The notes under the pieces were generated by a model, which was given only the letters and a program-made list of their open reading frames with translations, searched no databases and was not told the origin of the DNA. From positions 1-30,256 of the IMG/VR virus record IMGVR_UViG_2563366827_000006: a DNA stretch of 30,256 nucleotides, one strand, 5' to 3'. Below, one piece after another: positions 2,306-30,256 of this stretch. The translations under genes and the position numbers were made by a program. Numbering within the stretch: position 1 is the first letter of the stretch; every line of letters starts with the position of its first letter. This DNA comes from a virus (taxonomy: Duplodnaviria > Heunggongvirae > Uroviricota > Caudoviricetes).

Positions 2306-2701
2306 TTACACTGGTGTGTTCAGCAAATCGTTAACGGCATCAGATGCCGGGTTACCTGCAGCCAGCGGTGCCGGTGCCCCCTGCATCAGACGATCCAGCG
2401 CAGTGTCACTGCGCGCCTGTGCACTCTGTGGTGCTGCGGCCAGAATGCGGCGGGCCGTTTCCACGGTCATACCGGGGGTTTCTGCCAGCACGCGGGCCTG
2501 TTCTTCGCGTCCGTGAGCCTCCTCACAGTTGAGGATCCCCATAATGCGGCTGTTTTCTGCCGCAACCGCAGCGGTGATCTGCGCGTTCACGTCCGGCTGC
2601 GCCGCGCTGGCGTTTTCGCCCTCCGTCGCTGGCACCACGTCAGTAACGTCAGCCTGCGAAGCAGTGGCTGAAACAGTTGTTGATTGAGTCTCTTTGGTCA
2701 T
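2306..2701 (-). CDS. Nu3: Scaffolding protein Nu3 (in-frame internal start within C)
   Basis: Internal ATG at 2701 gives MTKETQSTTVSATASQADV… 131 aa sharing the C-terminus of C, as for lambda Nu3. Confidence 0.75.
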   Translation of the reverse strand: MTKETQSTTVSATASQADVTDVVPATEGENASAAQPDVNAQITAAVAAENSRIMGILNCEEAHGREEQARVLAETPGMTVETARRILAAAPQSAQARSDTALDRLMQGAPAPLAAGNPASDAVNDLLNTPV

Positions 2702-3605
2702 TCGCCCTCCTGAGAGACGGGATTTACGTGCATCCAGTGCATCACGCATGACGGTGATCGCATCGGTGCTGTTAACAAGTTCATCAGCCAGTCCGGCATC
2801 AATGGCCTCCTGACCGCTGTACACTGCAGCCTCGGTATCCAGCACAGCCTGCACGGACAGGCCGGTATATGCCGACACCTTCTGCGCAAACATCTGGCGG
2901 GTTGCGTCCATCCGGGACTGCAGTGTCTCCCGGACGTCATCCGGAAGATGGCTGTAGGGGTTGCCATCCACCTTATGGCTGCCGCTGTAAATCAGCGTGA
3001 TTTCCACGCCCTGTTTCTCCAGCGCAGCACCGTAATTACTGTGAGCCATCATGACGCCGATGGAGCCTGTCCGGGCGGTCTGCGTGACCAGACGCCGGGA
3101 GGCGGCACTGGCAAGCAACTGACCTGCACTGCAGTTCATGTCGTTGGCAAGCGCCCATACCGGTTTTATGTCACGCACACGGGCGATGATGTCAGCGCAG
3201 TCAAATGCCCCCGCCACCATCCCGCCGGGCGTGTCCATATCGAGCAGAATGCCGTCCACCATCGGATCGCTGGCAGCCTGTTGCAGACGGGCGATAATGC
3301 CGTTGTAACCGGTCATCCCCGAGTACGGCTGCAGCGCCCGCGTCCGGCTGACCAGCGTGCCGGACACCGGCAGCACGGCGATGCCGTTCATGACCTGATA
3401 ACTGCGGGCCTGTCGTGGTCCGTCATCATCACCGGATAATGCCAGCGTCGCGAGTGCCTCCTGGGCAGCCAGGCTGTCGCCGGACACCGCATCCGTCAGG
3501 CGGCTGATCCCAAGCTGGCCTGCAAGCGCACAAAAGAAAACCCGCGCATAGGCGGGTTCAAGCATCAGCGGCTCATTAAAGGCCATGCTGGCAATATGCG
3601 GGAGA

Positions 3606-3625
<20 letters not shown>
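2306..3625 (-). CDS. C: Head maturation protease / minor capsid protein C (GTG start)
   Basis: ORF 2306-3760 contains VTAELRNLPHIASMAFNEPLMLEPAYARVFF… matching lambda gpC (439 aa); GTG at 3625-3623 preceded by GGAGGAG RBS; overlaps B 3' end as in lambda. Confidence 0.88.
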
Positions 3626-7306
<3,681 letters not shown>

Positions 7307-10602: not shown

Positions 10603-11700
10603 ATGAAAAAATTAACAGTGGCAATTTCTGCTGTAGCTGCATCAGTACTGATGGCGATGTCTGCTCAGGCAGCTGAAATTTATAATAAAGACAGTAACAA
10701 GCTGGATCTGTACGGGAAAGTTAATGCCAAGCACTACTTTTCCTCTAACGATGCAGATGATGGTGATACTACTTATGTTCGTCTGGGCTTCAAAGGCGAA
10801 ACCCAAATCAACGATCAGCTGACTGGTTTCGGTCAGTGGGAATATGAATTCAAAGGCAACCGCGCTGAATCTCAAGGTTCCTCCAAAGACAAAACCCGTC
10901 TTGCATTTGCAGGCCTGAAATTCGGTGACTACGGCTCAATCGATTACGGCCGTAACTACGGTGTAGCATACGACATCGGTGCGTGGACTGACGTTCTGCC
11001 AGAATTCGGTGGCGATACCTGGACCCAAACAGATGTGTTCATGACTGGTCGTACCACTGGTGTTGCAACCTATCGTAACAACGACTTCTTTGGTCTGGTT
11101 GATGGTCTGAACTTTGCTGCTCAGTACCAAGGCAAAAACGATCGTAGCGATTTCGATAACTACACCGAAGGTAACGGTGATGGCTTCGGTTTCTCTGCTA
11201 CCTATGAATACGAAGGATTCGGTATCGGTGCAACTTATGCGAAATCTGATCGTACCGACACTCAAGTTAATGCAGGGAAAGTTCTTCCTGAAGTATTTGC
11301 TTCCGGTAAAAATGCAGAAGTTTGGGCCGCAGGTCTGAAATATGACGCTAACAACATTTACCTGGCCACTACCTATTCTGAAACCCAGAATATGACTGTA
11401 TTTGCTGATCACTTCGTTGCTAATAAAGCTCAAAACTTCGAAGCTGTTGCACAATATCAGTTCGATTTCGGTCTGCGTCCGTCCGTTGCTTACCTGCAAT
11501 CTAAAGGTAAGGATCTTGGAGTATGGGGCGATCAGGACTTAGTCAAATATGTTGATGTAGGTGCAACCTATTACTTCAACAAAAATATGTCTACTTTCGT
11601 TGATTACAAAATCAACCTGCTTGACAAAAATGACTTCACTAAAGCACTCGGTGTAAGCACTGATGACATCGTTGCTGTAGGTCTGGTTTACCAGTTCTAA
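10603..11700 (+). CDS. nmpC: Outer-membrane general porin, OmpC/OmpF family (prophage-encoded NmpC/Lc type)
   Basis: 365-aa ORF with signal peptide [23 protein letters not shown] and C-terminal …VAVGLVYQF; matches remembered NmpC/Lc; sits between Q and S on the opposite strand as in DLP12 and PA-2. Confidence 0.9.
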
Positions 11701-13308: not shown

Positions 13309-13378
13309 TACTCTGATCTTACCCAGCAATAGTGGACACGCGGCTAAGTGAGTAAACTCTCAGTCAGAGGTGACTCAC

Positions 13379-13678
13379 ATGACAAAAACAGTATCAACCA
13401 GTAAAAAACCCCGTAAACAGCATTCGCCTGAATTTCGCAGTGAAGCCCTGAAGCTTGCTGAACGCATCGGTGTTACTGCCGCAGCCCGTGAACTCAGCCT
13501 GTATGAATCACAGCTCTACAACTGGCGCAGTAAACAGCAAAATCAGCAGACGTCTTCTGAACGTGAACTGGAGATGTCTACCGAGATTGCACGTCTCAAA
13601 CGCCAGCTGGCAGAACGGGATGAAGAGCTGGCTATCCTCCAAAAGGCCGCGACATACTTCGCGAAGCGCCTGAAATGA
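13379..13678 (+). CDS. insE: IS3 transposase OrfA (InsE)
   Basis: [54 protein letters not shown]… matches IS3 OrfA; ATG at 13379. Confidence 0.92.
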
Positions 13679-14541
13679 AGTATGTCTTTATTGAAAAACA
13701 TCAGGCTGAGTTCAGCATCAAAGCAATGTGCCGCGTGCTCCGGGTGGCCCGCAGCGGCTGGTATACGTGGTGTCAGCGGCGGACAAGGATAAGCACGCGT
13801 CAGCAGTTCCGCCAACACTGCGACAGCGTTGTCCTCGCGGCTTTTACCCGGTCAAAACAGCGTTACGGTGCCCCACGCCTGACGGATGAACTGCGTGCTC
13901 AGGGTTACCCCTTTAACGTAAAAACCGTGGCGGCAAGCCTGCGCCGTCAGGGACTGAGGGCAAAGGCCTCCCGGAAGTTCAGCCCGGTCAGCTACCGCGC
14001 ACACGGCCTGCCTGTGTCAGAAAATCTGTTGGAGCAGGATTTTTACGCCAGTGGCCCGAACCAGAAGTGGGCAGGAGACATCACGTACTTACGTACAGAT
14101 GAAGGCTGGCTGTATCTGGCAGTGGTCATTGACCTGTGGTCACGTGCCGTTATTGGCTGGTCAATGTCGCCACGCATGACGGCGCAACTGGCCTGCGATG
14201 CCCTGCAGATGGCGCTGTGGCGGCGTAAGAGGCCCCGGAACGTTATCGTTCACACGGACCGTGGAGGCCAGTACTGTTCAGCAGATTATCAGGCGCAACT
14301 GAAGCGGCATAATCTGCGTGGAAGTATGAGCGCAAAAGGTTGCTGCTACGATAATGCCTGCGTGGAAAGCTTCTTTCATTCGCTGAAAGTGGAATGTATC
14401 CATGGAGAACACTTTATCAGCCGGGAAATAATGCGGGCAACGGTGTTTAATTATATCGAATGTGATTACAATCGGTGGCGGCGGCACAGTTGGTGTGGCG
14501 GCCTCAGTCCGGAACAATTTGAAAACAAGAACCTCGCTTAG
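13675..14541 (+). CDS. insF: IS3 transposase OrfB (InsF; DDE catalytic domain, normally expressed as OrfAB by -1 frameshift)
   Basis: 288-aa [39 protein letters not shown]… matches IS3 OrfB; overlaps orfA 3' end. Confidence 0.92.
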
Positions 14542-16598: not shown

Positions 16599-17093
16599 TC
16601 ATTTCCAATTGCAAGACTGTGAAATTTTTTCCACAACCTTATCAATCTCAGACAAGTCAAACTCAACTACTTGCATAGTTGATCCATAAGGTTCAAACCC
16701 AAAAATAGCTTTTTTATGCTTAGCCAAGGTCTTTATAAATTGTATTGGTTGTGGAGCAAATGCAGAATCACCGCCTTCCCCACCTCCCCAAACACTCTTG
16801 ACCGGCTTTCCGCCATCTAACCGCACTGTAATCCTTGGGTTGTCCGAACCCATATAATCATTGAATGATAAATAGGCATCTGTTTTGTTATCACTACAAC
16901 GCAACACCAGTGAAGTTGCACGATCAGTACCTGCTTTGTTATATGAATCTGGTGATAAATTAAGAGCCACAAAGTCAGTCTGGTCAGTCATTTTATTTAT
17001 CTCAGACTTTGTTATCCACGGCCCTAACTTCTCTACACCAGCATTTGCTGTAAACGAGGCACTTATGACAAAGGCTAAAATAAATTTTCTCAT
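16599..17093 (-). CDS. Hypothetical secreted or periplasmic protein with signal peptide (unknown function, moron cassette)
   Basis: 164-aa ORF MRKFILAFVISASFTANA|GVEKL… has a typical Sec signal peptide with ANA cleavage motif; strong RBS AAGGAG 8 nt upstream; AT-rich. Confidence 0.65.
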   Translation of the reverse strand: MRKFILAFVISASFTANAGVEKLGPWITKSEINKMTDQTDFVALNLSPDSYNKAGTDRATSLVLRCSDNKTDAYLSFNDYMGSDNPRITVRLDGGKPVKSVWGGGEGGDSAFAPQPIQFIKTLAKHKKAIFGFEPYGSTMQVVEFDLSEIDKVVEKISQSCNWK

Positions 17094-19123: not shown

Positions 19124-19669
19124 TCATATTGCCCCCAGCATGGTGGTGACCATCGCCATCAATGGACCAGCCAGGTCCGGGTCCACACGAAACATCGACA
19201 CAATGCCTTCACTCATCTCCTTCAGTTTCTGGTGGCGTGGTGCGTTGAGAATGACAGCCTGTTTTGCCTCACTGAGTTCCTTTTCCATTTCAGCCAGCCG
19301 AGCCATGAAGCTATCCTGCTCAACCAAGTGGCCGCGATATTCCAGCGGTAGTACCGCCAGAATTGCCGGGGTCAATTCACGCACGTTATTTCGGTATTTT
19401 TCAGAATCGAATTTGTTATCGAGGAAGCGGAACAGCTTCTGGCGTGCACGGCTGACATCATCAGGGAAATCGATGGTGCCGCCGCCCTGTGCTCGATACT
19501 CATTCACAATGAGTGCGGCAACGACATCCTGATTATCTTCAGCCGACCAGGCGCGGACGGCATCACGGATTTTTTCGTGGCCTGGCACCTGTTTTGTTTG
19601 AGAACGATTTATCACCGCTGTCGGGCTAAATCCGCTAGTCTGTTGGTATGTAAGTGGTTGCATAGTCAT
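19124..19669 (-). CDS. YdaT-family protein occupying the cII position (putative CII-like lysogeny regulator)
   Basis: 181-aa ORF; segment …VNEYRAQGGGTIDFPDD…LTPAILAVLPLEYRGHL… resembles remembered Rac YdaT; sits between cro-like gene and O. Confidence 0.55.
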   Translation of the reverse strand: MTMQPLTYQQTSGFSPTAVINRSQTKQVPGHEKIRDAVRAWSAEDNQDVVAALIVNEYRAQGGGTIDFPDDVSRARQKLFRFLDNKFDSEKYRNNVRELTPAILAVLPLEYRGHLVEQDSFMARLAEMEKELSEAKQAVILNAPRHQKLKEMSEGIVSMFRVDPDLAGPLMAMVTTMLGAI

Positions 19670-19921: not shown

Positions 19922-20031
19922 TATCAATTCCTATTGGTATTGCAATGAACAGATAATAGCAATGCGTATTAACCCATTCAATAGCAAAACGTGTTTTGAC
20001 CATCAATACGCAAGCGTATAAATTAAAACTT
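19922..20031. promoter_or_regulatory. Immunity control region between divergent cro-like and cI-like genes (expected pR/pRM and oR operators)
   Basis: 110-bp AT-rich intergenic region with repeated AATAGCAA(T/A) motifs (~19955-19965, ~19981-19989) and inverted repeat TACGCAAGCGTA at 20007-20018. Confidence 0.6.
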
Positions 20032-20724
20032 ATGAAAAAAGAAACTCTTGCTGATCGCTTAAACCTAGCGATGGAACAATCTGGAATGTCTCAAGGCGCT
20101 CTTGCAAAGGCGTCTGGCGTAGCTCAACCCACAATCTGGAGACTGACAAGCGGCAACGCGCGCGGCTCAACAAAAATTGTTGAAATAGCTAATGCATTGG
20201 GTGTTCGAACAGAGTGGCTCTCATCAGGCATAGGCCCGATGAGAAATGACGGTCAACAATCAGGAAAGCCTGCTGTCAACCATTCCAAATACTTCAAGAT
20301 TGACGTTCTTGATATAGAAGTCAGTGCTGGGCCGGGTGTCATCAACCGTGAGTTTGTAGAAGTCCTACGCTCGGTTGAGTACTCGTTTGACGATGCTCGT
20401 CACATGTTCGATGGCAGGAAGGCAGAAAATATCCGCATCATTAACGTACGCGGTGACAGCATGTCAGGAACGATCGAACCAGGTGATCTTTTGTTCGTTG
20501 ATATCACTGTTAAATCTTTCGACGGTGATGGTATCTATGCGTTTCTGTACGACGACACAGCCCATGTAAAGCGCCTGCAAATGATGAAGGATAAGCTGCT
20601 GGTTATCTCTGATAACAAGAGCTACTCACCGTGGGACCCGATCGAGAAAGACGAGATGAACCGGGTGTTTATCTTCGGTAAGGTTATTGGGAGCATGCCG
20701 CAGACATATAGGAAGCATGGTTAA
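20032..20724 (+). CDS. CI-like prophage repressor (N-terminal XRE-type HTH, C-terminal LexA-like S24 autopeptidase domain)
   Basis: ORF 19996-20724 begins with TTG; ATG at 20032 gives MKKETLADRLNLAMEQSGMSQGALAKASGVAQPTIWRL…; Ala-Gly site in EVSAGPG, Ser in RGDSMSGT and Lys in HVKRL form the S24 motifs. Confidence 0.88.
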   Translation: MKKETLADRLNLAMEQSGMSQGALAKASGVAQPTIWRLTSGNARGSTKIVEIANALGVRTEWLSSGIGPMRNDGQQSGKPAVNHSKYFKIDVLDIEVSAGPGVINREFVEVLRSVEYSFDDARHMFDGRKAENIRIINVRGDSMSGTIEPGDLLFVDITVKSFDGDGIYAFLYDDTAHVKRLQMMKDKLLVISDNKSYSPWDPIEKDEMNRVFIFGKVIGSMPQTYRKHG

Positions 20725-20846
20725 AGTGAGGCTAAAAAACAGTTACAGCAATAGGCCTGTTGTTTTTCTTTAAACACGCAGTGTTAAACCGCTCTTTGAG
20801 ATGCGGAGTAATGAGATGGAAGACTTGAATCACATAAGGGTTAGTG

Positions 20847-21596
20847 ATGGAGTGCGTAGCGAGCAGCAATAGTGCAATACCTAATGTCGTTGAGGTAATA
20901 CGTCGCATCAATGAAGGTTCCACTCAGCCATTTCTTTGCAAATGTGATGATGGGCAGTTGTATGTTTTGAAGTCAAAACCATCAATGCCCCCGAAAAATC
21001 TCTTAGCTGAGTTCATTTCGGCGTGTTTGGCTAATGATATCGGCCTTCCTTTACCTGACTTTAAAATCGTATTTGTGCCAGAGGAACTTATAGAGTACTC
21101 ACCTGATCTGCAGCAACAAATTTGTACAGGATATGCCTTTGCTTCATTGTTCATTGACGGTGCAATAGCGTTAACGTTTACGCAGTCAAGAAACGAAACG
21201 ATCATCCCAGTCGAACAGCAAAAATTAATCTATGTTTTTGATAAATGGATATTAAATGCAGACAGAACGCTTACTGACAAAGGTGGAAACGTTAACATCC
21301 TTTATGACATCAGTAACGATAAGTATTATCTGATTGACCATAATCTCTCATTTGATCAGAATGCTGGACCTGAAGATTTTTCTGTGCACGTGTACGGCCC
21401 TGGTAACCGCAAATGGCAATATGATTTAGTGGATCGCGTAGAGTACCGCCAGAGGGTCGTTAACAGTTTACACAAGCTTCCTGCTATCCTTGACGAAATT
21501 CCAGAAGAGTGGATAGTAGATGAGGAGTTTTTACCTTTTGTCTGCACTACGCTAGACAAAGGTGATTGTGATGAATTTTGGAGCGCAATAGAATGA
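20847..21596 (+). CDS. Hypothetical protein with HipA-like atypical kinase-fold motifs (gene 1 of two-gene cassette in rexAB position)
   Basis: ~249 aa from ATG 20847 (AAGGG RBS at 20836-20840; ORF track starts 20844); motif YVFDKWILNADRTLTDKGGNVNIL…YLIDHNLSF resembles HipA-type catalytic loop; kinase assignment is pattern-based, not searched. Confidence 0.55.
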   Translation: MECVASSNSAIPNVVEVIRRINEGSTQPFLCKCDDGQLYVLKSKPSMPPKNLLAEFISACLANDIGLPLPDFKIVFVPEELIEYSPDLQQQICTGYAFASLFIDGAIALTFTQSRNETIIPVEQQKLIYVFDKWILNADRTLTDKGGNVNILYDISNDKYYLIDHNLSFDQNAGPEDFSVHVYGPGNRKWQYDLVDRVEYRQRVVNSLHKLPAILDEIPEEWIVDEEFLPFVCTTLDKGDCDEFWSAIE

Positions 21597-22420
21597 CAAC
21601 TCCATGCCTATATAGCATCGTTCGCTATGCGCCTTATGCGGAGACTGAAGAGTTCGCAAACATAGGCGTACTTCTGTGCGCGCCAAAAGAAAATTACTTT
21701 GATTTCCAGCTCACAAAGCGAAATGACTCTCGTGTAAAGAATTTTTTCCATGATGATTGTATTTTCCCTGTAGCAAAAGACTCAATACAAAGAGAACTAC
21801 AGTTCGCAAAAATGCATGCGACCCAGATTGTTGGACATCAACAACTTGCACAATTCTTCAGATATTTTACAAACAAAAAAGAATCAATTTTTCAGTTCAG
21901 TTCTACGAGAGTGATTCTCAGCGAAAACCCAAAAGAAGAGCTGGCCCGCATTTACAATAAATATGTAAACCACTCTGACTACACAAAAGAGCGCCGTGAA
22001 GATGTTCTAGCCAGAGAGCTAAAACGAAGTATCGATAGAATAGATGGATTGAAGAACGTCTTCAAACAAGCAACCATTGATGGGTATTTCGCAAAGTTCT
22101 CAATGCCATTGGTCGCCAAGAAGCATGACAGGATCCAATGTGCCATCAAACCTCTGGCATTCACTCAAGCTGAACCAGGAAAAATGATGGAGCATAGTGA
22201 TACTTGGGTGATGAGAATAACTCGAGCAGCAGAAGAAAACCTGCTTTCACTTGATGACATTTTATTCACAATTGAAACTCCTGAATCACCAAACTCAGGC
22301 CAAAGCAAAGTTATTGACATCATAAAGAGAACTATGGATGCTAAGAAAATAAATCATATACCTGCATCCAACCACAAAGAAACTATTGATTTTGCAAAAA
22401 AAATACTTCCCCAAGTTTAA
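21593..22420 (+). CDS. DUF3037-like protein (gene 2 of two-gene cassette, translationally coupled)
   Basis: ATG at 21593 overlaps gene-1 stop (ATGA); N-terminus MTTPCLYSIVRYAPYAETEEFANIGVLL matches my recollection of the DUF3037 N-terminal signature; ~275 aa. Confidence 0.55.
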   Translation: MTTPCLYSIVRYAPYAETEEFANIGVLLCAPKENYFDFQLTKRNDSRVKNFFHDDCIFPVAKDSIQRELQFAKMHATQIVGHQQLAQFFRYFTNKKESIFQFSSTRVILSENPKEELARIYNKYVNHSDYTKERREDVLARELKRSIDRIDGLKNVFKQATIDGYFAKFSMPLVAKKHDRIQCAIKPLAFTQAEPGKMMEHSDTWVMRITRAAEENLLSLDDILFTIETPESPNSGQSKVIDIIKRTMDAKKINHIPASNHKETIDFAKKILPQV

Positions 22421-26137: not shown

Positions 26138-26740
26138 TCATTCAGTATCATCACGCGCGGTCTGTGCATATGTCACTACCGCACCTAATGTATTAATTTT
26201 CTTTTCAACATAGATAATATTATCGTACTCATAATTGCCATACGGATAGCAAATGCGAATATTCTCATGTAGATCGGGGTCATCCACCTCAGCTCCAGAA
26301 CAACTTTTTGAACTACCGGAAGTATACCGATACGGTGCAACATAAGACGATGTCTCTCCAGGCAAAAAATAAGTTAGTGTTGTAAGGGGTATAATCAGAA
26401 AAAATCCAGAAAATATGCACATCCCTGCATAAACCTTAAGGTATGCTGACAGACTCTTCCAGCCGTTTTGTTTTACTATCCCCTTCTTAACCCAAAACAG
26501 AGATAACAGAAAAGCTATTCCCATGCTAAACAGAATGTAATAGTGGGATATACTCTGATTAAGAAACGTGACCCTGTAGATATCTGCCCGCCACCAGAAG
26601 AAAAGGAAAATAAAGATCAGCCCTGAAACTGTCATGCAAATCAAATAAGGATACGAATCTTTTTTCATGTTTAGCGCCCATAAAATTTTTCCTGCCCCGG
26701 ACAAATTTACCATCCATTTTTTGCGCAGAAAATAGCTCAT
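26138..26740 (-). CDS. Hypothetical integral membrane protein (multiple TM helices; opposite-strand moron; start codon uncertain)
   Basis: 200-aa ORF with hydrophobic segments (LICMTVSGLIFIFLFFWW, YYILFSMGIAFLLSLFWV, VYAGMCIFSGFFLIIPLTTLTYFL) and a Cys/Tyr-rich C-terminal tail; AT-rich; no SD at any candidate ATG. Confidence 0.55.
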   Translation of the reverse strand: MSYFLRKKWMVNLSGAGKILWALNMKKDSYPYLICMTVSGLIFIFLFFWWRADIYRVTFLNQSISHYYILFSMGIAFLLSLFWVKKGIVKQNGWKSLSAYLKVYAGMCIFSGFFLIIPLTTLTYFLPGETSSYVAPYRYTSGSSKSCSGAEVDDPDLHENIRICYPYGNYEYDNIIYVEKKINTLGAVVTYAQTARDDTE

Positions 26741-26952: not shown

Positions 26953-27753
26953 ATGACTATCCACTTTCACGGCAGCCCAATATGGGGGGATGAGCATGCC
27001 CCTACAGATATGCTGATTAAAGCCCTTTACCGTGATGGTGGGGCTTTTGTTTCATTTGCCAGACCAGAGCAGATGAAAAAGATTGCCATGTTCCCTTGTG
27101 ATATACGCCTTGATAACGGTGCTTTTAGCGACTGGATGAAAGCATTAAAGAAAGGCACTCCGGTAGACTGGAGTAAGAGACGAGCAAAATTCTACGACTT
27201 TGTTGGGAAGTGGTTCAGCAGAATTGAATGGTTTCTTATACCTGACGTTATCGAAGGGACAGAGGCAGAAAACGACGAGCAGATTGAGTTGGTTCCTGAT
27301 TGGCTAAAATCAAAAGCGGTTCCGGTCTGGCATACCGACGAATCAATTGAACGTCTTTTACGCCTTTCTGGCAAATTTGAATGGGTGGCGATTGGATGCT
27401 GCGGCCCACACAGGAACATACGCTCTAAATGGTGGGAACAGAGAATGGATGAAGTTTTCACTGAGCTTTATATCAATCGTAATTTGAAAGTGAAAATTCA
27501 TGGTCTTCGAATGCTCGACGTGAGAGTTCTTGGTATGTATCCGTTCGCCAGTGCGGATTCTACTAATGTTGCTGTTAACGTACCGAAGACAGAGAAGCGA
27601 TTTCCTGAGATTACCGACAAACTGGCACGTACAGCTGTACTTCGCGCTGCTATTGAAAAGGTGCACCCGCCATCGATATCAGCATGGGTAGACAGAAAGA
27701 TGAGAGAGCCGGCGCAAGCCGGTTTTTTATTTGAATTCACCGACGCCGCTTAA
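26953..27753 (+). CDS. Hypothetical protein (266 aa); weak, unverified resemblance to TGT/DpdA-type transglycosylase motifs
   Basis: ORF with GGGGA RBS; motifs …IRLDNGAFSDW… and …HGLRMLDV… loosely recall TGT catalytic Asp motifs (…DSGGFQ…, …GMFD…); own AT-rich upstream region. Confidence 0.5.
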   Translation: MTIHFHGSPIWGDEHAPTDMLIKALYRDGGAFVSFARPEQMKKIAMFPCDIRLDNGAFSDWMKALKKGTPVDWSKRRAKFYDFVGKWFSRIEWFLIPDVIEGTEAENDEQIELVPDWLKSKAVPVWHTDESIERLLRLSGKFEWVAIGCCGPHRNIRSKWWEQRMDEVFTELYINRNLKVKIHGLRMLDVRVLGMYPFASADSTNVAVNVPKTEKRFPEITDKLARTAVLRAAIEKVHPPSISAWVDRKMREPAQAGFLFEFTDAA

Positions 27754-27810
27754 TGCGGATTTCTTTTATATGAACTCGCTACGGCGGGTTTTATTTTATG
27801 GAGACAAGAA

Positions 27811-28155
27811 ATGTCAGATTTGGCTATGAAGGTTTTGAAATGGCAATCGACCGGCGATGTCGGCATCAGTAGCGCAACTCTTGCCTCAATCGCATGTGGA
27901 CTGAAAAAGAATATCTATGGTCATCACTTCGGCGCTCCACATGACGCAGCAGATTTCAGACGATGCGTTGCACTTGTTGAGCAGATTCCAGAAATCAGAG
28001 ATTCATTCAACAAGGTTGCAAAGCGCGTTCCGGCATTCAAAGGAATCCTCAACGAATGGGATTCCCTCGTTGCTCTGTTGAAGTCTGAAATGAAGATACA
28101 CGGAAACAAAGCACCAGAGACTTACAGAAGAATCAGCGAGCTACGCAAGGACTAA
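27811..28155 (+). CDS. Hypothetical protein (114 aa), unknown function
   Basis: ORF MSDLAMKVLKWQSTGDVGISSATLASIACGLKKNIYGHHFGAPHDAADFRRC… with GGAG RBS 9 nt upstream; terminator follows. Confidence 0.55.
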   Translation: MSDLAMKVLKWQSTGDVGISSATLASIACGLKKNIYGHHFGAPHDAADFRRCVALVEQIPEIRDSFNKVAKRVPAFKGILNEWDSLVALLKSEMKIHGNKAPETYRRISELRKD

Positions 28156-28212
28156 CCCGCCTCACACTCGATGAGGCCTGTTCATTGCTCAATGATATCC
28201 AGACCTACCATC

Positions 28213-28236
28213 GCCGCATCAATGCGGTTTTTTATT
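28213..28236 (+). terminator. Rho-independent terminator (GCCGCA-tcaa-TGCGG followed by TTTTTTTATT)
   Basis: GC stem plus 7-T run downstream of the 114-aa gene. Confidence 0.7.
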
Positions 28237-28243
28237 GCCTGAT

Positions 28244-28259
28244 TTGCAGGTTCGATTCC
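28244..28259 (+). other. tRNA-Arg (argW) T-arm-like fragment TTGCAGGTTCGATTCC, not part of an intact tRNA gene
   Basis: 16/16 match to the T-stem/loop portion of argW as I remember it (…AATTGCAGGTTCGATTCCTGCAGGGGACACCA); sequence diverges immediately after. Confidence 0.5.
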
Positions 28260-28278
28260 CTATTTGGAGATAGCACTC

Positions 28279-28479
28279 ATGCAACACGAACTACAACCTG
28301 ATTCACTGGTTGATTTGAAATTCATCATGGCTGATACTGGCTTCGGTAAGACCTTCATCTATGACCGGATTAAGTCCGGCGACCTGCCTAAAGCCAAAGT
28401 TATCCACGGACGAGCAAGATGGTTATATCGTGACCATTGTGAATTCAAAAATAAGCTCTTAAGCCGCGCCAATGGGTAA
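28279..28479 (+). CDS. torI: TorI-like excisionase / recombination directionality factor (AlpA/Xis family winged-helix)
   Basis: ORF 28264-28479 begins with TTG; ATG at 28279 (GGAGA RBS) gives 66 aa MQHELQPDSLVDLKFIMADTGFGKTFIYDRIKSGDLPKAKVIHGRARWLYRDHCEFKNKLLSRANG, matching remembered KplE1 TorI; adjacent to an argW core repeat. Confidence 0.75.
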   Translation: MQHELQPDSLVDLKFIMADTGFGKTFIYDRIKSGDLPKAKVIHGRARWLYRDHCEFKNKLLSRANG

Positions 28480-28551
28480 AATAGCGGGTAAAATATTTTT
28501 CACATCTAAAAAATACCATTCCAATCAATCCCCTGCCGCGCCAAGTAGATG

Positions 28552-28567
28552 CCTGCAGGGGACACCA
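28552..28567 (+). other. attR: Prophage attachment-site core: 16-nt copy of the 3' end of tRNA-Arg argW (CCTGCAGGGGACACCA), prophage/host junction
   Basis: Exact match to the remembered last 16 nt of argW including discriminator and CCA; no upstream tRNA body, so it is a core repeat rather than a tRNA gene. Confidence 0.65.
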
Positions 28568-29008
28568 GATACCCTTCAAACGAAATCTACCTTCACCCCG
28601 TAAAAGATGGGTTTGGCAGCACACTTGCCTTATATCTACTCATTTTTACTGCAACAGGTTGAAATCTCAGCACTGTCAGAAAGCGCTGATGACTAAACAG
28701 CCCTGGGCCGGGCGATGTAACCATCACACAGAATCCTGATAGCGAAATATGGCGTGACTCGATACTTCACTCCGCAATGCATTCCTTGATGAATTCGCAG
28801 GACCGTGATACACGGGACAGGTCACTGAATGACGACAATGTCCTGGAAATCAGCGAACCGCGCATCTGAAGTACATTTGAGCGACTGTACCAGAACATGA
28901 ATGAGGCGTTTGGATTAGGCGATTATTAGCAGGGCTAAGCATTTTACTATTATTATTTTCCGGTTGAGGGATATAGAGCTATCGACAACAACCGGAAAAA
29001 GTTTACGT

Positions 29009-30256
29009 CTATATTGCTGAAGGTACAGGCGTTTCCATAACTATTTGCTCGCGTTTTTTACTCAAGAAGAAAATGCCAAATAGCAACATCAGGCAGACAA
29101 TACCCGAAATTGCGAAGAAAACTGTCTGGTAGCCTGCGTGGTCAAAGAGTATCCCAGTCGGCGTTGAAAGCAGCACAATCCCAAGCGAACTGGCAATTTG
29201 AAAACCAATCAGAAAGATCGTCGACGACAGGCGCTTATCAAAGTTTGCCACGCTGTATTTGAAGACGGATATGACACAAAGTGGAACCTCAATGGCATGT
29301 AACAACTTCACTAATGAAATAATCCAGGGGTTAACGAACAGCGCGCAGGAAAGGATACGCAACGCCATAATCACAACTCCGATAAGTAATGCATTTTTTG
29401 GCCCTACCCGATTCACAAAGAAAGGAATAATCGCCATGCACAGCGCTTCGAGTACCACCTGGAATGAGTTGAGATAACCATACAGGCGCGTTCCTACATC
29501 GTGTGATTCGAATAAACCTGCATAAAAGACAGGAAAAAGTTGTTGATCAAAAATGTTATAGAAAGACCACGTCCCCACAATAAATATGACGAAAACCCAG
29601 AAGTTTCGATCCTTGAAAACTGCGATAAAATCCTCTTTTTTTACCCCTCCCGCATCTGCCGCTACGCACTGGTGATCCTTATCTTTAAAACGCATGTTGA
29701 TCATCATAAATACAGCGCCAAATAGCGAGACCAACCAGAAGTTGATATGGGGACTGATACTAAAAAATATGCCGGCAAAGAACGCGCCAATAGCATAGCC
29801 AAAAGATCCCCAGGCGCGCGCTGTTCCATATTCGAAATGAAAATTTCGCGCCATTTTTTCGGTGAAGCTATCAAGCAAACCGCATCCCGCCAGATACCCC
29901 AAGCCAAAAAATAGCGCCCCCAGAATTAGACCTACAGAAAAATTGCTTTGCAGTAACGGTTCATAAACGTAAATCATAAACGGTCCGGTCAAGACCAGGA
30001 TGAAACTCATACACCAGATGAGCGGTTTCTTCAGACCGAGTTTATCCTGAACGATGCCGTAGAACATCATAAATAGAATGCTGGTAAACTGGTTGACCGA
30101 ATAAAGTGTACCTAATTCCGTCCCTGTCAACCCTAGATGTCCTTTCAGCCAAATAGCGTATAACGACCACCACAGCGACCAGGAAATAAAAAAGAGAAAT
30201 GAGTAACTGGATGCAAAACGATAGTACGCATTTCTGAATGGAATATTCAGTGCCAT
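29009..30256 (-). CDS. cscB: LacY-family oligosaccharide:H+ symporter, most likely sucrose permease CscB (host chromosomal gene)
   Basis: 415-aa ORF MALNIPFRNAYYRFASSYSFLFFISWSLWWSLYAIWLKGHLGL… with LacY-family motifs (DKLGLKK, FDQQ, GPKNALL, HAIEVP, FKY); start codon is the last 3 nt of the window. Confidence 0.8.
   Translation of the reverse strand: MALNIPFRNAYYRFASSYSFLFFISWSLWWSLYAIWLKGHLGLTGTELGTLYSVNQFTSILFMMFYGIVQDKLGLKKPLIWCMSFILVLTGPFMIYVYEPLLQSNFSVGLILGALFFGLGYLAGCGLLDSFTEKMARNFHFEYGTARAWGSFGYAIGAFFAGIFFSISPHINFWLVSLFGAVFMMINMRFKDKDHQCVAADAGGVKKEDFIAVFKDRNFWVFVIFIVGTWSFYNIFDQQLFPVFYAGLFESHDVGTRLYGYLNSFQVVLEALCMAIIPFFVNRVGPKNALLIGVVIMALRILSCALFVNPWIISLVKLLHAIEVPLCVISVFKYSVANFDKRLSSTIFLIGFQIASSLGIVLLSTPTGILFDHAGYQTVFFAISGIVCLMLLFGIFFLSKKREQIVMETPVPSAI

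Follow-up and report, generated by a model that had tools for sequence, protein, structure and literature searches.

The IntS/TorI site-specific recombination module, whose architecture and 16-nt core have been published (PMC2951348, PMC3509656), is found in KplE1 (CPS-53), a 10-kb defective prophage remnant beside dsdC in Escherichia coli K-12. HK620, Sf6 and CUS-3, in which HkaC/P18 is the counterpart of TorI and the integrase is of the IntS type, as well as argW-directed lambdoid/Stx phages such as VT2phi_272, share the torI - attP - intS arrangement and the argW target (PMC3509656). Integrases of this group are 98–100% identical to IntS. In K-12, TorI sites have the cores GTTCG, GATCG or GTCCG and IntS arm-type sites contain TAAA (PMC2951348, PMC3509656), the latter being common to all published arm-type sites; repression of intS by TorI requires site I4, and the core is given as CTGCAGGGGACACCAT (PMC2951348). 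Moreover, a 135-bp K-12 attR, beginning at primer attR-IHF2, works in vitro (PMC3509656). The torI promoter has been termed ‘non-characterized’, and expression of the recombination directionality factor (RDF) has been named an open question (PMC2951348).

On the circular phage genome the gene order is torI - attP - intS, and upon integration intS therefore comes to lie beside the rebuilt argW at attL, torI being left as the terminal phage gene on the attR side. At attL the 3' end of the tRNA is supplied by the phage, the original argW 3' end, CCTGCAGGGGACACCA, being displaced to attR. Excision requires both IntS and TorI; IntS is kept low by self-repression of a promoter inside attL, and TorI acts as the limiting switch. 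The att sites were reportedly mapped in a JBC paper of 2007 and a Virology paper of 2010, and a PNAS paper of 2013 is said to concern Rho and torI. The module resembles that of lambda in having a bivalent integrase whose arm-type and core-type sites are distinct, a 7-bp overlap between imperfect inverted half-sites, and an RDF that steers recombination toward excision. In lambda, however, int and xis are neighbours that share transcription from pL, whereas here the two genes flank attP and each has its own transcript; the lambda xis leader, in addition, is not known to carry a copy of the attB half-site.

The DNA analysed here, referred to as the window, is the whole 30,256-nt stretch of the Caudoviricetes record IMGVR_UViG_2563366827_000006, and the evidence supports the assignment of one end of its prophage to the already known IntS/TorI module of KplE1, HK620, Sf6 and CUS-3 (Table 1). 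Overall, the best explanation, which we regard as highly probable, is that this end is the argW attR of a KplE1/HK620/Sf6-type module and that a 16-mer ahead of torI is a conserved, phage-borne copy of an attB half-site. An earlier note, prepared from the sequence without database searches, had described a KplE1-type prophage end, and this description is borne out, as torI stands at attR, is followed by the argW core repeat, and aligns together with it to KplE1.

Table 1. Features of the right prophage end and adjoining host DNA, in window coordinates.
Feature	Position	Strand	Basis
P22-type xis relic, 5' part of the gene (~codons 5-21), without start codon	28159-28209	+	sequence match
Hairpin GCCGCATCAATGCGGT with a T run after it, resembling an intrinsic terminator	28213-28233	+	terminator scan; directly 5' of the torI leader
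T-arm-like 16-mer TTGCAGGTTCGATTCC (core CAGGTTCGATTCC at 28247-28259)	28244-28259	+	argW identity; conservation
Shine-Dalgarno GGAGA of torI	28266-28270	+	read from sequence; 6 nt past the T-arm-like motif, 8 nt ahead of the ATG
torI (recombination directionality factor/excisionase of the IntS/TorI module)	28279-28479	+	protein identity to K-12 TorI
Phage-side part plus core of the experimentally sufficient attR	28456-28567	+	primer attR-IHF2 matches 28456-28475
Two direct GGGTAAAAT repeats, putative IntS arm-type sites of the P arm	28474-28482 and 28486-28494	+	motif count; TAAA likeness
Conserved P-arm block CCAATCAATCCCCTGC, candidate attR IHF site	28521-28536	+	cross-genus conservation 3' of the RDF gene
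Proposed crossover core: C half-site GATGCC (28548-28553), 7-bp overlap TGCAGGG (28554-28560), B' half-site GACACC (28561-28566)	28548-28566	+	symmetry
argW 3'-end copy CCTGCAGGGGACACCA, 16 nt, attR core repeat	28552-28567	+	exact match to argW; K-12 alignment
Native argW-cscB chromosomal spacer (bacterial)	28568-29008		empty-site genomes
cscB (sucrose/oligosaccharide MFS permease), host gene	29009-30256	-	ORF and homologue annotation

The 66-aa product of torI is identical to TorI of E. coli K-12, and homologous genes are annotated with WP_001163428; IMG/VR torI loci likewise encode a 100% identical protein. It is also identical to PDB entry 1Z4H, matched over its full length (E = 6.6e-43), which places it among the TorI/HkaC RDFs, winged-helix proteins of 66 aa. 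The earlier note had called this an AlpA/Xis-family gene; its size, coordinates and role as an excisionase stand, but the family label is not reached by Pfam, the scores being 16.9 bits for HTH_17 and 12.7 bits for Phage_AlpA, under gathering cut-offs of 27 and 21, respectively, and a scan against NCBIfam gave no match. Although some homologues do carry an AlpA-family label in the sources, sequence similarity to these families is weak. The Shine-Dalgarno sequence is kept at equal spacing in most of the lineages aligned. Upstream of the gene, a scan for a sigma-70 promoter of torI overlapping the T-arm-like motif found none, only terminator-like hairpins being present there; in torI loci with a P22-like upstream context, a different hairpin and T run occupy the same place. 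Further upstream, the xis relic is 88–94% identical to xis genes of P22, SfV, SfIV and epsilon34, its P22 counterpart lying 14–63 nt into the gene, and it marks a mosaic joint, the IntS/TorI module having taken the place of a xis-int module of P22/lambda type.

When the region was compared with the K-12 KplE1 attR, a check that the earlier note had proposed, the alignment extended from 5' of torI to the final base of the core, at ~93% nucleotide identity over the stretch from the torI leader to the core, and then broke off, cscB-side DNA following here and dsdC-side DNA in K-12. KplE1 shares the core, the GGGTAAAAT pair and the T-arm-like 16-mer; its prophage likewise closes with torI, and the integrase gene is expected on the argW side. 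Differences in the attachment region include the base preceding the core (C here, T in K-12) and the base following it (G here, of the csc-type attB, T in K-12); beyond it, in contrast to the KplE1 remnant, the window holds a lambdoid prophage beside csc sucrose genes, with genes arranged as in lambda: O, P, Q, lysozyme, NinB, an S24/HTH CI-like repressor, Bet, Exo, terminase, portal and capsid genes. HK620, Sf6, CUS-3 and the argW-directed lambdoid/Stx phages, which have the same leader with the T-arm-like motif, differ in virion type and in the rest of the genome, as is usual for mosaic phages in which the module moves from P22-like to lambda-like backbones or back. The joint in the present DNA falls within the xis relic.

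The argW 3'-end sequence CCTGCAGGGGACACCA occurs once in the window, at the coordinates given previously. Its first base, the C at 28552, is a minority allele found here and in a few relatives; most related prophages have T, and the copy is there 15 nt long. Of the 15–16-nt repeat (CTGCAGGGGACACCA) expected at both prophage ends, the attR copy is present and the attL copy lies beyond the window; in the homologous prophage of E. coli strain 48 it is inside an intact argW. An inverted repeat around TGCAGGG was seen in 23 lineages; Erwinia phage vB_EhrS_49 has it in perfect form, with half-sites GGTGTC and GACACC, and in Edwardsiella both half-sites are altered together, to GGCGTA and AACGCC, around the same TGCAGGG. 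From this symmetry we infer that cleavage would take place within 28548-28566.

Between torI and the core, GGGTAAAAT was matched twice against 0.23 expected, the first repeat overlapping the torI stop codon. The pair contains TAAA, as do the published IntS arm-type sites, and by this sequence match would serve the P arm as arm-type sites; on both arms together, the repeats change to GGGCATA in the phages Emek and phiEt88. The block CCAATCAATCCCCTGC, a partial match to the IHF consensus WATCAA, is probably the IHF site of attR.

Consistent with the earlier note, no recombinase ORF lies between bet/exo and cscB according to the ORF list and Pfam, and the sole ‘integrase core’ match in the window belongs to an IS3-family DDE transposase (13675-14541). 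The RDF gene is the last gene of the prophage, with no neighbouring integrase gene and with bacterial DNA directly past the core. Genomes with an empty site, in which tRNA-Arg is next to the oligosaccharide MFS transporter gene, match 28548-29010 at 99.8% identity. The closest sequenced relative with this prophage, E. coli strain 48 (NZ_CP166879; 98.5% identity over window 1-24000), has intS and an intact tRNA-Arg(CCT) with the same core at its other prophage end, together with five TorI sites and IntS sites as published, which the intS promoter overlaps. Supported by this 98.5%-identical relative, the integrase gene is predicted to lie at the far end of the prophage here as well. The three observations that the earlier note had named as speaking against its reading, an intact tRNA gene at 28552-28567, an overlooked integrase gene next to it and unrelated att sites, were all absent. 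The module assignment fixes the right boundary of an argW lambdoid prophage, identifies torI as an excisionase of the phage and not as a regulator of the host, and predicts intS beside argW at the other end.

The T-arm-like 16-mer, at the coordinates noted before, is an exact copy of the argW T arm and the only one in the window. The earlier note was right that the two fragments together would rebuild the 3' half of argW: both 16-mers tile its last 30 nt, ttgcaggttcgattcctgcaggggacacca, with a 2-nt overlap. More precisely, CAGGTTCGATTCC is identical to the argW stretch directly 5' of the crossover region, the identity ends at ...GATTCC, and the block shared by attP and attB begins at the next bases. 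Because argW identity stops exactly where this block begins, the evidence favours reading the motif as a duplicate of the half-site that attB has on its bacterial (B) side. To our knowledge, this motif in the torI leader has not been described.

Its distribution shows that 28244-28259 is a conserved, phage-borne part of the module and not a local scar. K-12 KplE1 carries the identical 16-mer, and nearly all of ~80 IMG/VR torI loci carry the motif, in two unrelated upstream contexts; within these loci only rare single-locus changes occur in it, without any common polymorphism, and the flanking positions are polymorphic. Across Enterobacterales, CAGGTTCGATTCC precedes the ATG of the excisionase gene by ~29 nt in 13 of 23 lineages, including prophages of Enterobacter, Citrobacter, Serratia, Pantoea, Edwardsiella and Hafnia and the isolated phages Midgardsormr38 (two copies), Emek and phiEt88, and in some motif-bearing isolated phages the excisionase is merely 39–53% identical to TorI. 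In nine lineages GGTTCGATT is invariant, with synonymous third positions of the RDF gene only 54–73% identical. The other 10 lineages lack the motif, among them Dryocola with a clean deletion, and it is therefore dispensable.

Further hints come from how the motif varies and what accompanies it. Its only common variant, GATTTC, is a shift toward the C-arm consensus GATGTC. On the C arm of the phage, the consensus AATTCGATGT is kept beside the same boundary, though it is never part of a tRNA, and TTCGAT consequently looks like part of the sequence read by the integrase. Phage phiEt88 has altered P'-arm repeats as well as altered Int arm-type sites, its motif being unaltered. The leading guess for the function of the motif is a putative IntS-binding site controlling torI. 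IntS bound to the motif, a half-site resembling a core-type site, would hold torI expression down in the lysogen, possibly bridged or looped to the arm-type GGGTAAAAT pair just 3' of torI, and the motif itself would probably have originated at an old integrase-mediated or aberrant-excision junction that caught the left half of attB. That CAGGTTCGATTCC is a working operator, through which the core-binding domain of the integrase controls its own directionality factor, is a tentative proposal in which we place rather low confidence. The motif is a single half-site without an inverted partner, which speaks against a core-type site, and the tandem direct copies in Midgardsormr38 are unlike what would be expected of one. 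Its location ~200 bp outside the attR sufficient for excision in vitro and its absence from 10 of 23 lineages also count against the proposed function.

It could instead be postulated that the motif is an operator for TorI itself, which would bind the GTTCG core and so switch off translation or transcription of torI. A repressor role of TorI at attL is already known, the motif adjoins the torI ribosome-binding site, and it holds GGTTCG, the core of the published TorI site I4, TGGTTCGC (PMC2951348). However, each of the 15 TorI-type sites read in K-12 and in two Erwinia phages shows one pyrimidine two bases ahead of GTTCG and another following it, the motif having A at both positions, and its conserved 13-nt block exceeds the length of a TorI site. 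Moreover, phiEt88, whose RDF is 39% identical, has CGATGTAAC-like P'-arm repeats without GTTCG, yet its motif has not followed them, and autoregulation gives no reason for argW identity to end at the crossover boundary. We therefore consider a TorI operator unlikely.

Action of the motif as RNA, either as a T-loop/T-arm mimic or as an anti-Shine-Dalgarno sequence affecting translation, processing or stability of torI mRNA, would suit its location in the leader, 6 nt ahead of the Shine-Dalgarno sequence and at a near-constant distance from the ATG. The weak UUCC:GGAG pairing suggested by RNAalifold would cover the Shine-Dalgarno sequence, and the Serratia flanks make a 4-bp T-stem, but the T-stem is limited to 2 bp in most lineages and the RNAalifold consensus reaches only -0.76 kcal/mol, with neither conserved leader structure, compensatory changes nor covariation. 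The GATTTC variant, in a true T arm, would break the universally conserved G53-C61 pair, and no 5' acceptor strand lies upstream. A tRNA or tRNA-like gene in the region was also rejected, since ARAGORN found no tRNA gene in the whole window and Rfam no match in 27700-29100 at E <= 1. The phage-borne tRNA mimic that the earlier note had entertained is accordingly left without structural support, and a role as RNA appears quite improbable.

The same holds, on different grounds, for a non-functional scar, whether of an earlier tandem argW integration in this strain or as the decaying remains of a tRNA captured by an ancestral phage, which we likewise judge very doubtful. The two fragments do tile the argW 3' half as though an insertion had split it, the motif may plausibly have originated when the left half of attB was captured, and it is absent from 10 of 23 lineages and unneeded for excision in vitro, lying ~200 bp outside the 135-bp attR that supports it. 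The strain-specific version, which the earlier note had offered as the scar of an earlier tandem integration, is nevertheless excluded by the same sequence within phage DNA of K-12 KplE1 and of isolated phages. A neutral relic is itself unlikely, as 9–13 nt have stayed invariant while synonymous sites and flanks diverged by 30–45%, and the ~80 E. coli loci show no common polymorphism in the motif as opposed to polymorphic flanks. Nor did any of 5426 E. coli genomes contain a chimeric argW-5'/torI junction, a result by which the motif as an alternative crossover or homology site was rejected too. The ‘arm site’ that had also been suggested is a poor fit for a sequence outside the in vitro attR and unlike the IntS arm-type sites.

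A chance match to generic T-loop-like sequence is hardly credible and was refuted, for although GGTTCGAnTCC-like strings are common, one being present in every tRNA gene, the 16/16 match is to exactly the tRNA targeted by the module, 0 of 100 shuffles matched TTGCAGGTTCGATTCC even with one mismatch permitted, the 12-mer AGGTTCGATTCC has no second exact copy in 30 kb, and the site recurs at the same position in many independent lineages.

If the putative IntS-binding site controlling torI is real, it would supply the control of RDF expression that has been missing for prophages whose int and RDF genes are transcribed separately. The excision decision in this class is thought to rest on RDF expression, and a 13-bp element at the torI ribosome-binding site, conserved across genera, is a lead in this respect. 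KplE1 of K-12 is a well-established system in which the motif is a cheap and specific target for mutagenesis and binding work, with the stretch GTTCGATTCC set against the designed mutant form CAAGCTAAGG.

As for modules directed to other tRNA genes, a narrow scan of IMG/VR for GGTTCGAATCC followed by a Shine-Dalgarno sequence and ATG gave 117 matches, without a TorI-like ORF or an evident excisionase, 100 of the ORFs 3' of the scan motif being under 50 aa. In the protein search with IntS, relatives among the 120 matches listed were all at least 82% identical. Every member of the family found, down to 39% RDF and 61% integrase identity, targets an argW-type tRNA.

The reading of this junction as an argW prophage end with the known IntS/TorI architecture, as put forward in the earlier note, is supported by sequence comparison, the far end, which lies outside the window, probably being that seen in a homologous prophage of E. 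coli strain 48; the finding is real and was read correctly, and what it chiefly describes is established knowledge. In KplE1, intS is located at attL and torI at attR, the duplicated 16-nt core is CTGCAGGGGACACCAT, and the recombination module is common to HK620, Sf6, and CUS-3 (PMC2951348, PMC3509656). The alignment with the right end of K-12 KplE1 (CPS-53) that had been called for extends over ~28159-28567, across torI and up to the last core base, past which the two diverge, with dsdC-side DNA in K-12 versus csc-side DNA in the window. Thousands of E. coli genomes have an unoccupied site, in which tRNA-Arg precedes the spacer and MFS transporter gene seen in the window, and match the window from 28548 onward with 99.8% identity; 28568-29008 therefore belongs to the native chromosome, and 28552-28567 represents the argW 3' end in its displaced position. 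This sequence, CCTGCAGGGGACACCA, occurs once in the window, as does the T-arm-like motif TTGCAGGTTCGATTCC in the torI leader (28244-28259), and because argW terminates in ...aattgcaggttcgattcctgcaggggacacca, the two 16-mers together indeed cover its last 30 nt, overlapping by 2 nt. At 28552, the base before the core, the window and strain C41 carry C (GATGCC/TGCAGGG, the slash marking the boundary), which is the bacterial attB base, while T (GATGTC) is found in almost every related prophage; the C may represent an attP allele or mark the end point of strand exchange or repair.

What the earlier note states about the sequence (the torI ORF, both 16-mers, their tiling, and the lack of tRNA and recombinase genes) is correct throughout, and nothing that it had named as counter-evidence was found. 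An intact tRNA gene over the core was not among the features detected, as ARAGORN predicted no tRNA anywhere in the window, and Rfam gave no match in 27700-29100 at E <= 1. TorI is identical to that of E. coli K-12 (WP_001163428, borne by the homologous genes of both K-12 and strain C41) and to the protein of 80 IMG/VR loci (100%), and PDB 1Z4H ('Tor inhibition protein') matches the 28279-28479 product over its full length. From bet/exo to cscB, the ORF list and Pfam revealed no ORF with a recombinase domain, and the sole 'integrase core' domain in the window is that of an IS3-family transposase (13675-14541). The E. coli collection contains no match to the window as a whole. For the phage body, strain 48 (NZ_CP166879) comes closest, being 98.5% identical over 95% of window 1-24000; its prophage runs from lambda-type tail genes through intS to an intact tRNA-Arg(CCT) and yfdC, and in its attL the core lies in front of intS together with IntS sites and all five of the published TorI sites.

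In attL of K-12 and strain 48, the argW T-loop GTTCG is 31 bp from the GTTCG of TorI site I1; as published TorI sites are spaced by 20 bp (I1 to I2) or 10 bp (I3 to I4, I4 to I5), the T-loop is roughly in helical phase with the TorI array. The published attL substrate begins right at the T-arm. At a locus (locus positions 2501-4134) on a chromosome-sized, 4.87-Mb Hafnia-type contig, the excisionase gene, argW-type core, and integrase gene are contiguous in an attP-like order, suggesting a tandem array, integration through another site, or an assembled circular form.

The T-arm-like motif, left without an explanation in the earlier note, is not confined to this locus. The same 16-mer is found in the same place in K-12 KplE1, and in ~80 IMG/VR torI loci it lies behind two unrelated upstream contexts, P22-like and lambda-like, each ending in its own terminator hairpin; across these loci its 12-13-nt core shows only rare single-locus changes, with common polymorphisms at neighbouring positions. 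Beyond E. coli, prophages of Enterobacter, Citrobacter, Serratia, Pantoea, Edwardsiella, and Hafnia have CAGGTTCGATT(C/T)C upstream of the excisionase ATG, at a distance of 27-36 nt (mostly 29-30), and the motif core is also present in the isolated phages Erwinia Midgardsormr38, Salmonella Emek, and Erwinia phiEt88, the excisionases of the latter two being 53% and 39% identical to TorI, respectively. Ahead of its excisionase gene, Midgardsormr38 (locus positions 2480-2520) carries AGGTTCGATTCC twice as a tandem direct repeat with a spacing of 16 bp, and in Enterobacter sp. R1 (locus positions ~2165-2195) an incomplete additional copy, TCGATTC, lies 12 nt upstream of the motif. GGTTCGATT does not vary among nine lineages in which the flanks cannot be aligned and identity at synonymous third positions of the excisionase gene is 54-73%. 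This cross-lineage invariance and the presence in phages indicate that the motif is phage-borne and under purifying selection; as it is missing from 10 of the 23 lineages (Dryocola appears to have lost it by a clean deletion), it is advantageous but not essential to the phage.

Comparison of the crossover region across the 23 lineages revealed a 7-bp TGCAGGG flanked by an imperfect inverted repeat, which is perfect in Erwinia phage vB_EhrS_49 (GGTGTC/TGCAGGG/GACACC) and changed on both sides together in Edwardsiella (GGCGTA/TGCAGGG/AACGCC). A 7-bp segment within an inverted repeat is the usual core anatomy of tyrosine recombinases, and from this we infer TGCAGGG to be the overlap region. With that boundary, argW attB is CAGGTTCGATTCC/TGCAGGG/GACACCA, and the motif upstream of torI equals the attB left arm, argW identity stopping exactly at the inferred boundary. 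The tiling follows naturally from this half-site reading, one fragment lying left of the cleavage point and the other comprising the overlap and the tRNA 3' end. The phage's own left arm is never in a tRNA, yet retains the consensus AATTCGATGT beside the boundary, which suggests that TTCGAT belongs to the sequence recognized by the integrase.

A 13-bp element abutting the crossover has the size of a recombinase-binding element. The favoured explanation, though less likely than not, is that the core-binding and catalytic domains of IntS bind the motif and thereby affect torI expression; a bridge might link IntS bound there to the arm-type pair just downstream of the torI stop codon. The motif probably arose when the left half of attB was taken up at an ancient junction, either integrase-mediated or formed by aberrant excision. 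Rho control of torI was reportedly described in a 2013 paper. The torI promoter has been termed 'non-characterized', and RDF expression named as an open question (PMC2951348). The conserved attB half-site copy in the torI leader gives a modest but testable lead, for which a well-developed experimental system exists.

The main rival, that TorI binds the motif and autoregulates torI, draws on the GGTTCG shared with published TorI site I4, but is weakened by two positions at which the motif has A and all 15 TorI-type sites read from K-12 and two Erwinia phages have pyrimidines, and by phiEt88, in which the P'-arm repeats are now CGATGTAAC-like and the Int arm-type sites GGGCATA, with the motif unchanged. 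No sigma-70 promoter was predicted over the motif, and no conserved RNA structure was found there beyond a weak UUCC:GGAG pairing with no covariation. Use as an alternative crossover is rejected, as 5426 E. coli genomes contained no chimeric argW-5'/torI junction. The in vitro attR substrate of the Ansaldi laboratory is 135 bp and starts at primer attR-IHF2 (PMC3509656), which maps to 28456-28475, so that the motif, ~200 bp upstream, is not part of this functional attR; the earlier idea of an arm site likewise fits poorly, since the motif bears no likeness to IntS arm-type sites, which contain TAAA (PMC2951348). The scar of an earlier tandem integration, also suggested before, is contradicted by the same motif in K-12 KplE1 and isolated phages. 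Chance is ruled out by the cross-lineage conservation and by zero matches to TTGCAGGTTCGATTCC in 100 shuffles, one mismatch allowed. No family member with another tRNA target appeared among the module relatives found, and a counterpart based on the common T-loop GGTTCGAATCC was not found in a narrow IMG/VR scan.

Coordinates of annotated features in the window
Feature	Position	Strand	Remarks
Gram-negative porin gene	10603-11700		full-length; late region
IS3-family insertion sequence	13370-14541		nin region, between NinB and Q
ORF with weak VasI-like (type VI secretion) domain	16599-17093		
YdaT_toxin-domain ORF	19124-19669		cII position
HipA_2-type kinase gene and DUF3037 gene	20844-22420		immediately downstream of CI-like repressor gene (19996-20724)
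200-aa ORF	26138-26740	opposite	no Pfam family match
P22-type xis relic	28159-28209		first ~20 codons, no start codon; directly upstream of torI module
torI ORF	28279-28479		encodes MQHELQPDSLVDLKFIMADTGFGKTFIYDRIKSGDLPKAKVIHGRARWLYRDHCEFKNKLLSRANG
Two GGGTAAAAT repeats	28474-28494		putative IntS arm-type sites by sequence

The remainder of the window is a lambdoid prophage with replication O and P, Q, lysozyme, NinB, a CI-like repressor, Bet, Exo, and terminase, portal, and capsid genes. In the IS3 element, a 102-aa ORF precedes a 288-aa ORF that has rve/HTH_21 domains, and because of the insertion in the nin region the prophage may be impaired. The HipA_2 kinase and DUF3037 genes resemble an accessory (moron) gene pair and may form a toxin or defence module. 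The porin gene and the VasI-like, YdaT_toxin-domain, and opposite-strand 200-aa ORFs are further accessory genes of the prophage. The xis relic, which is also present in K-12 KplE1 and phage Emek, indicates the point at which a xis-int module was replaced by the IntS/TorI module. In phiEt88 (locus positions 1230-1510) and Emek (locus positions 1225-1510), binding sites and proteins of a single module family have clearly changed in concert: the integrase arm-type repeats went from GGGTAAA to GGGCATA in both arms together, and the P'-arm repeats of phiEt88 from GTTCG-type to CGATGTAAC-type, with the argW core and leader motif unchanged.
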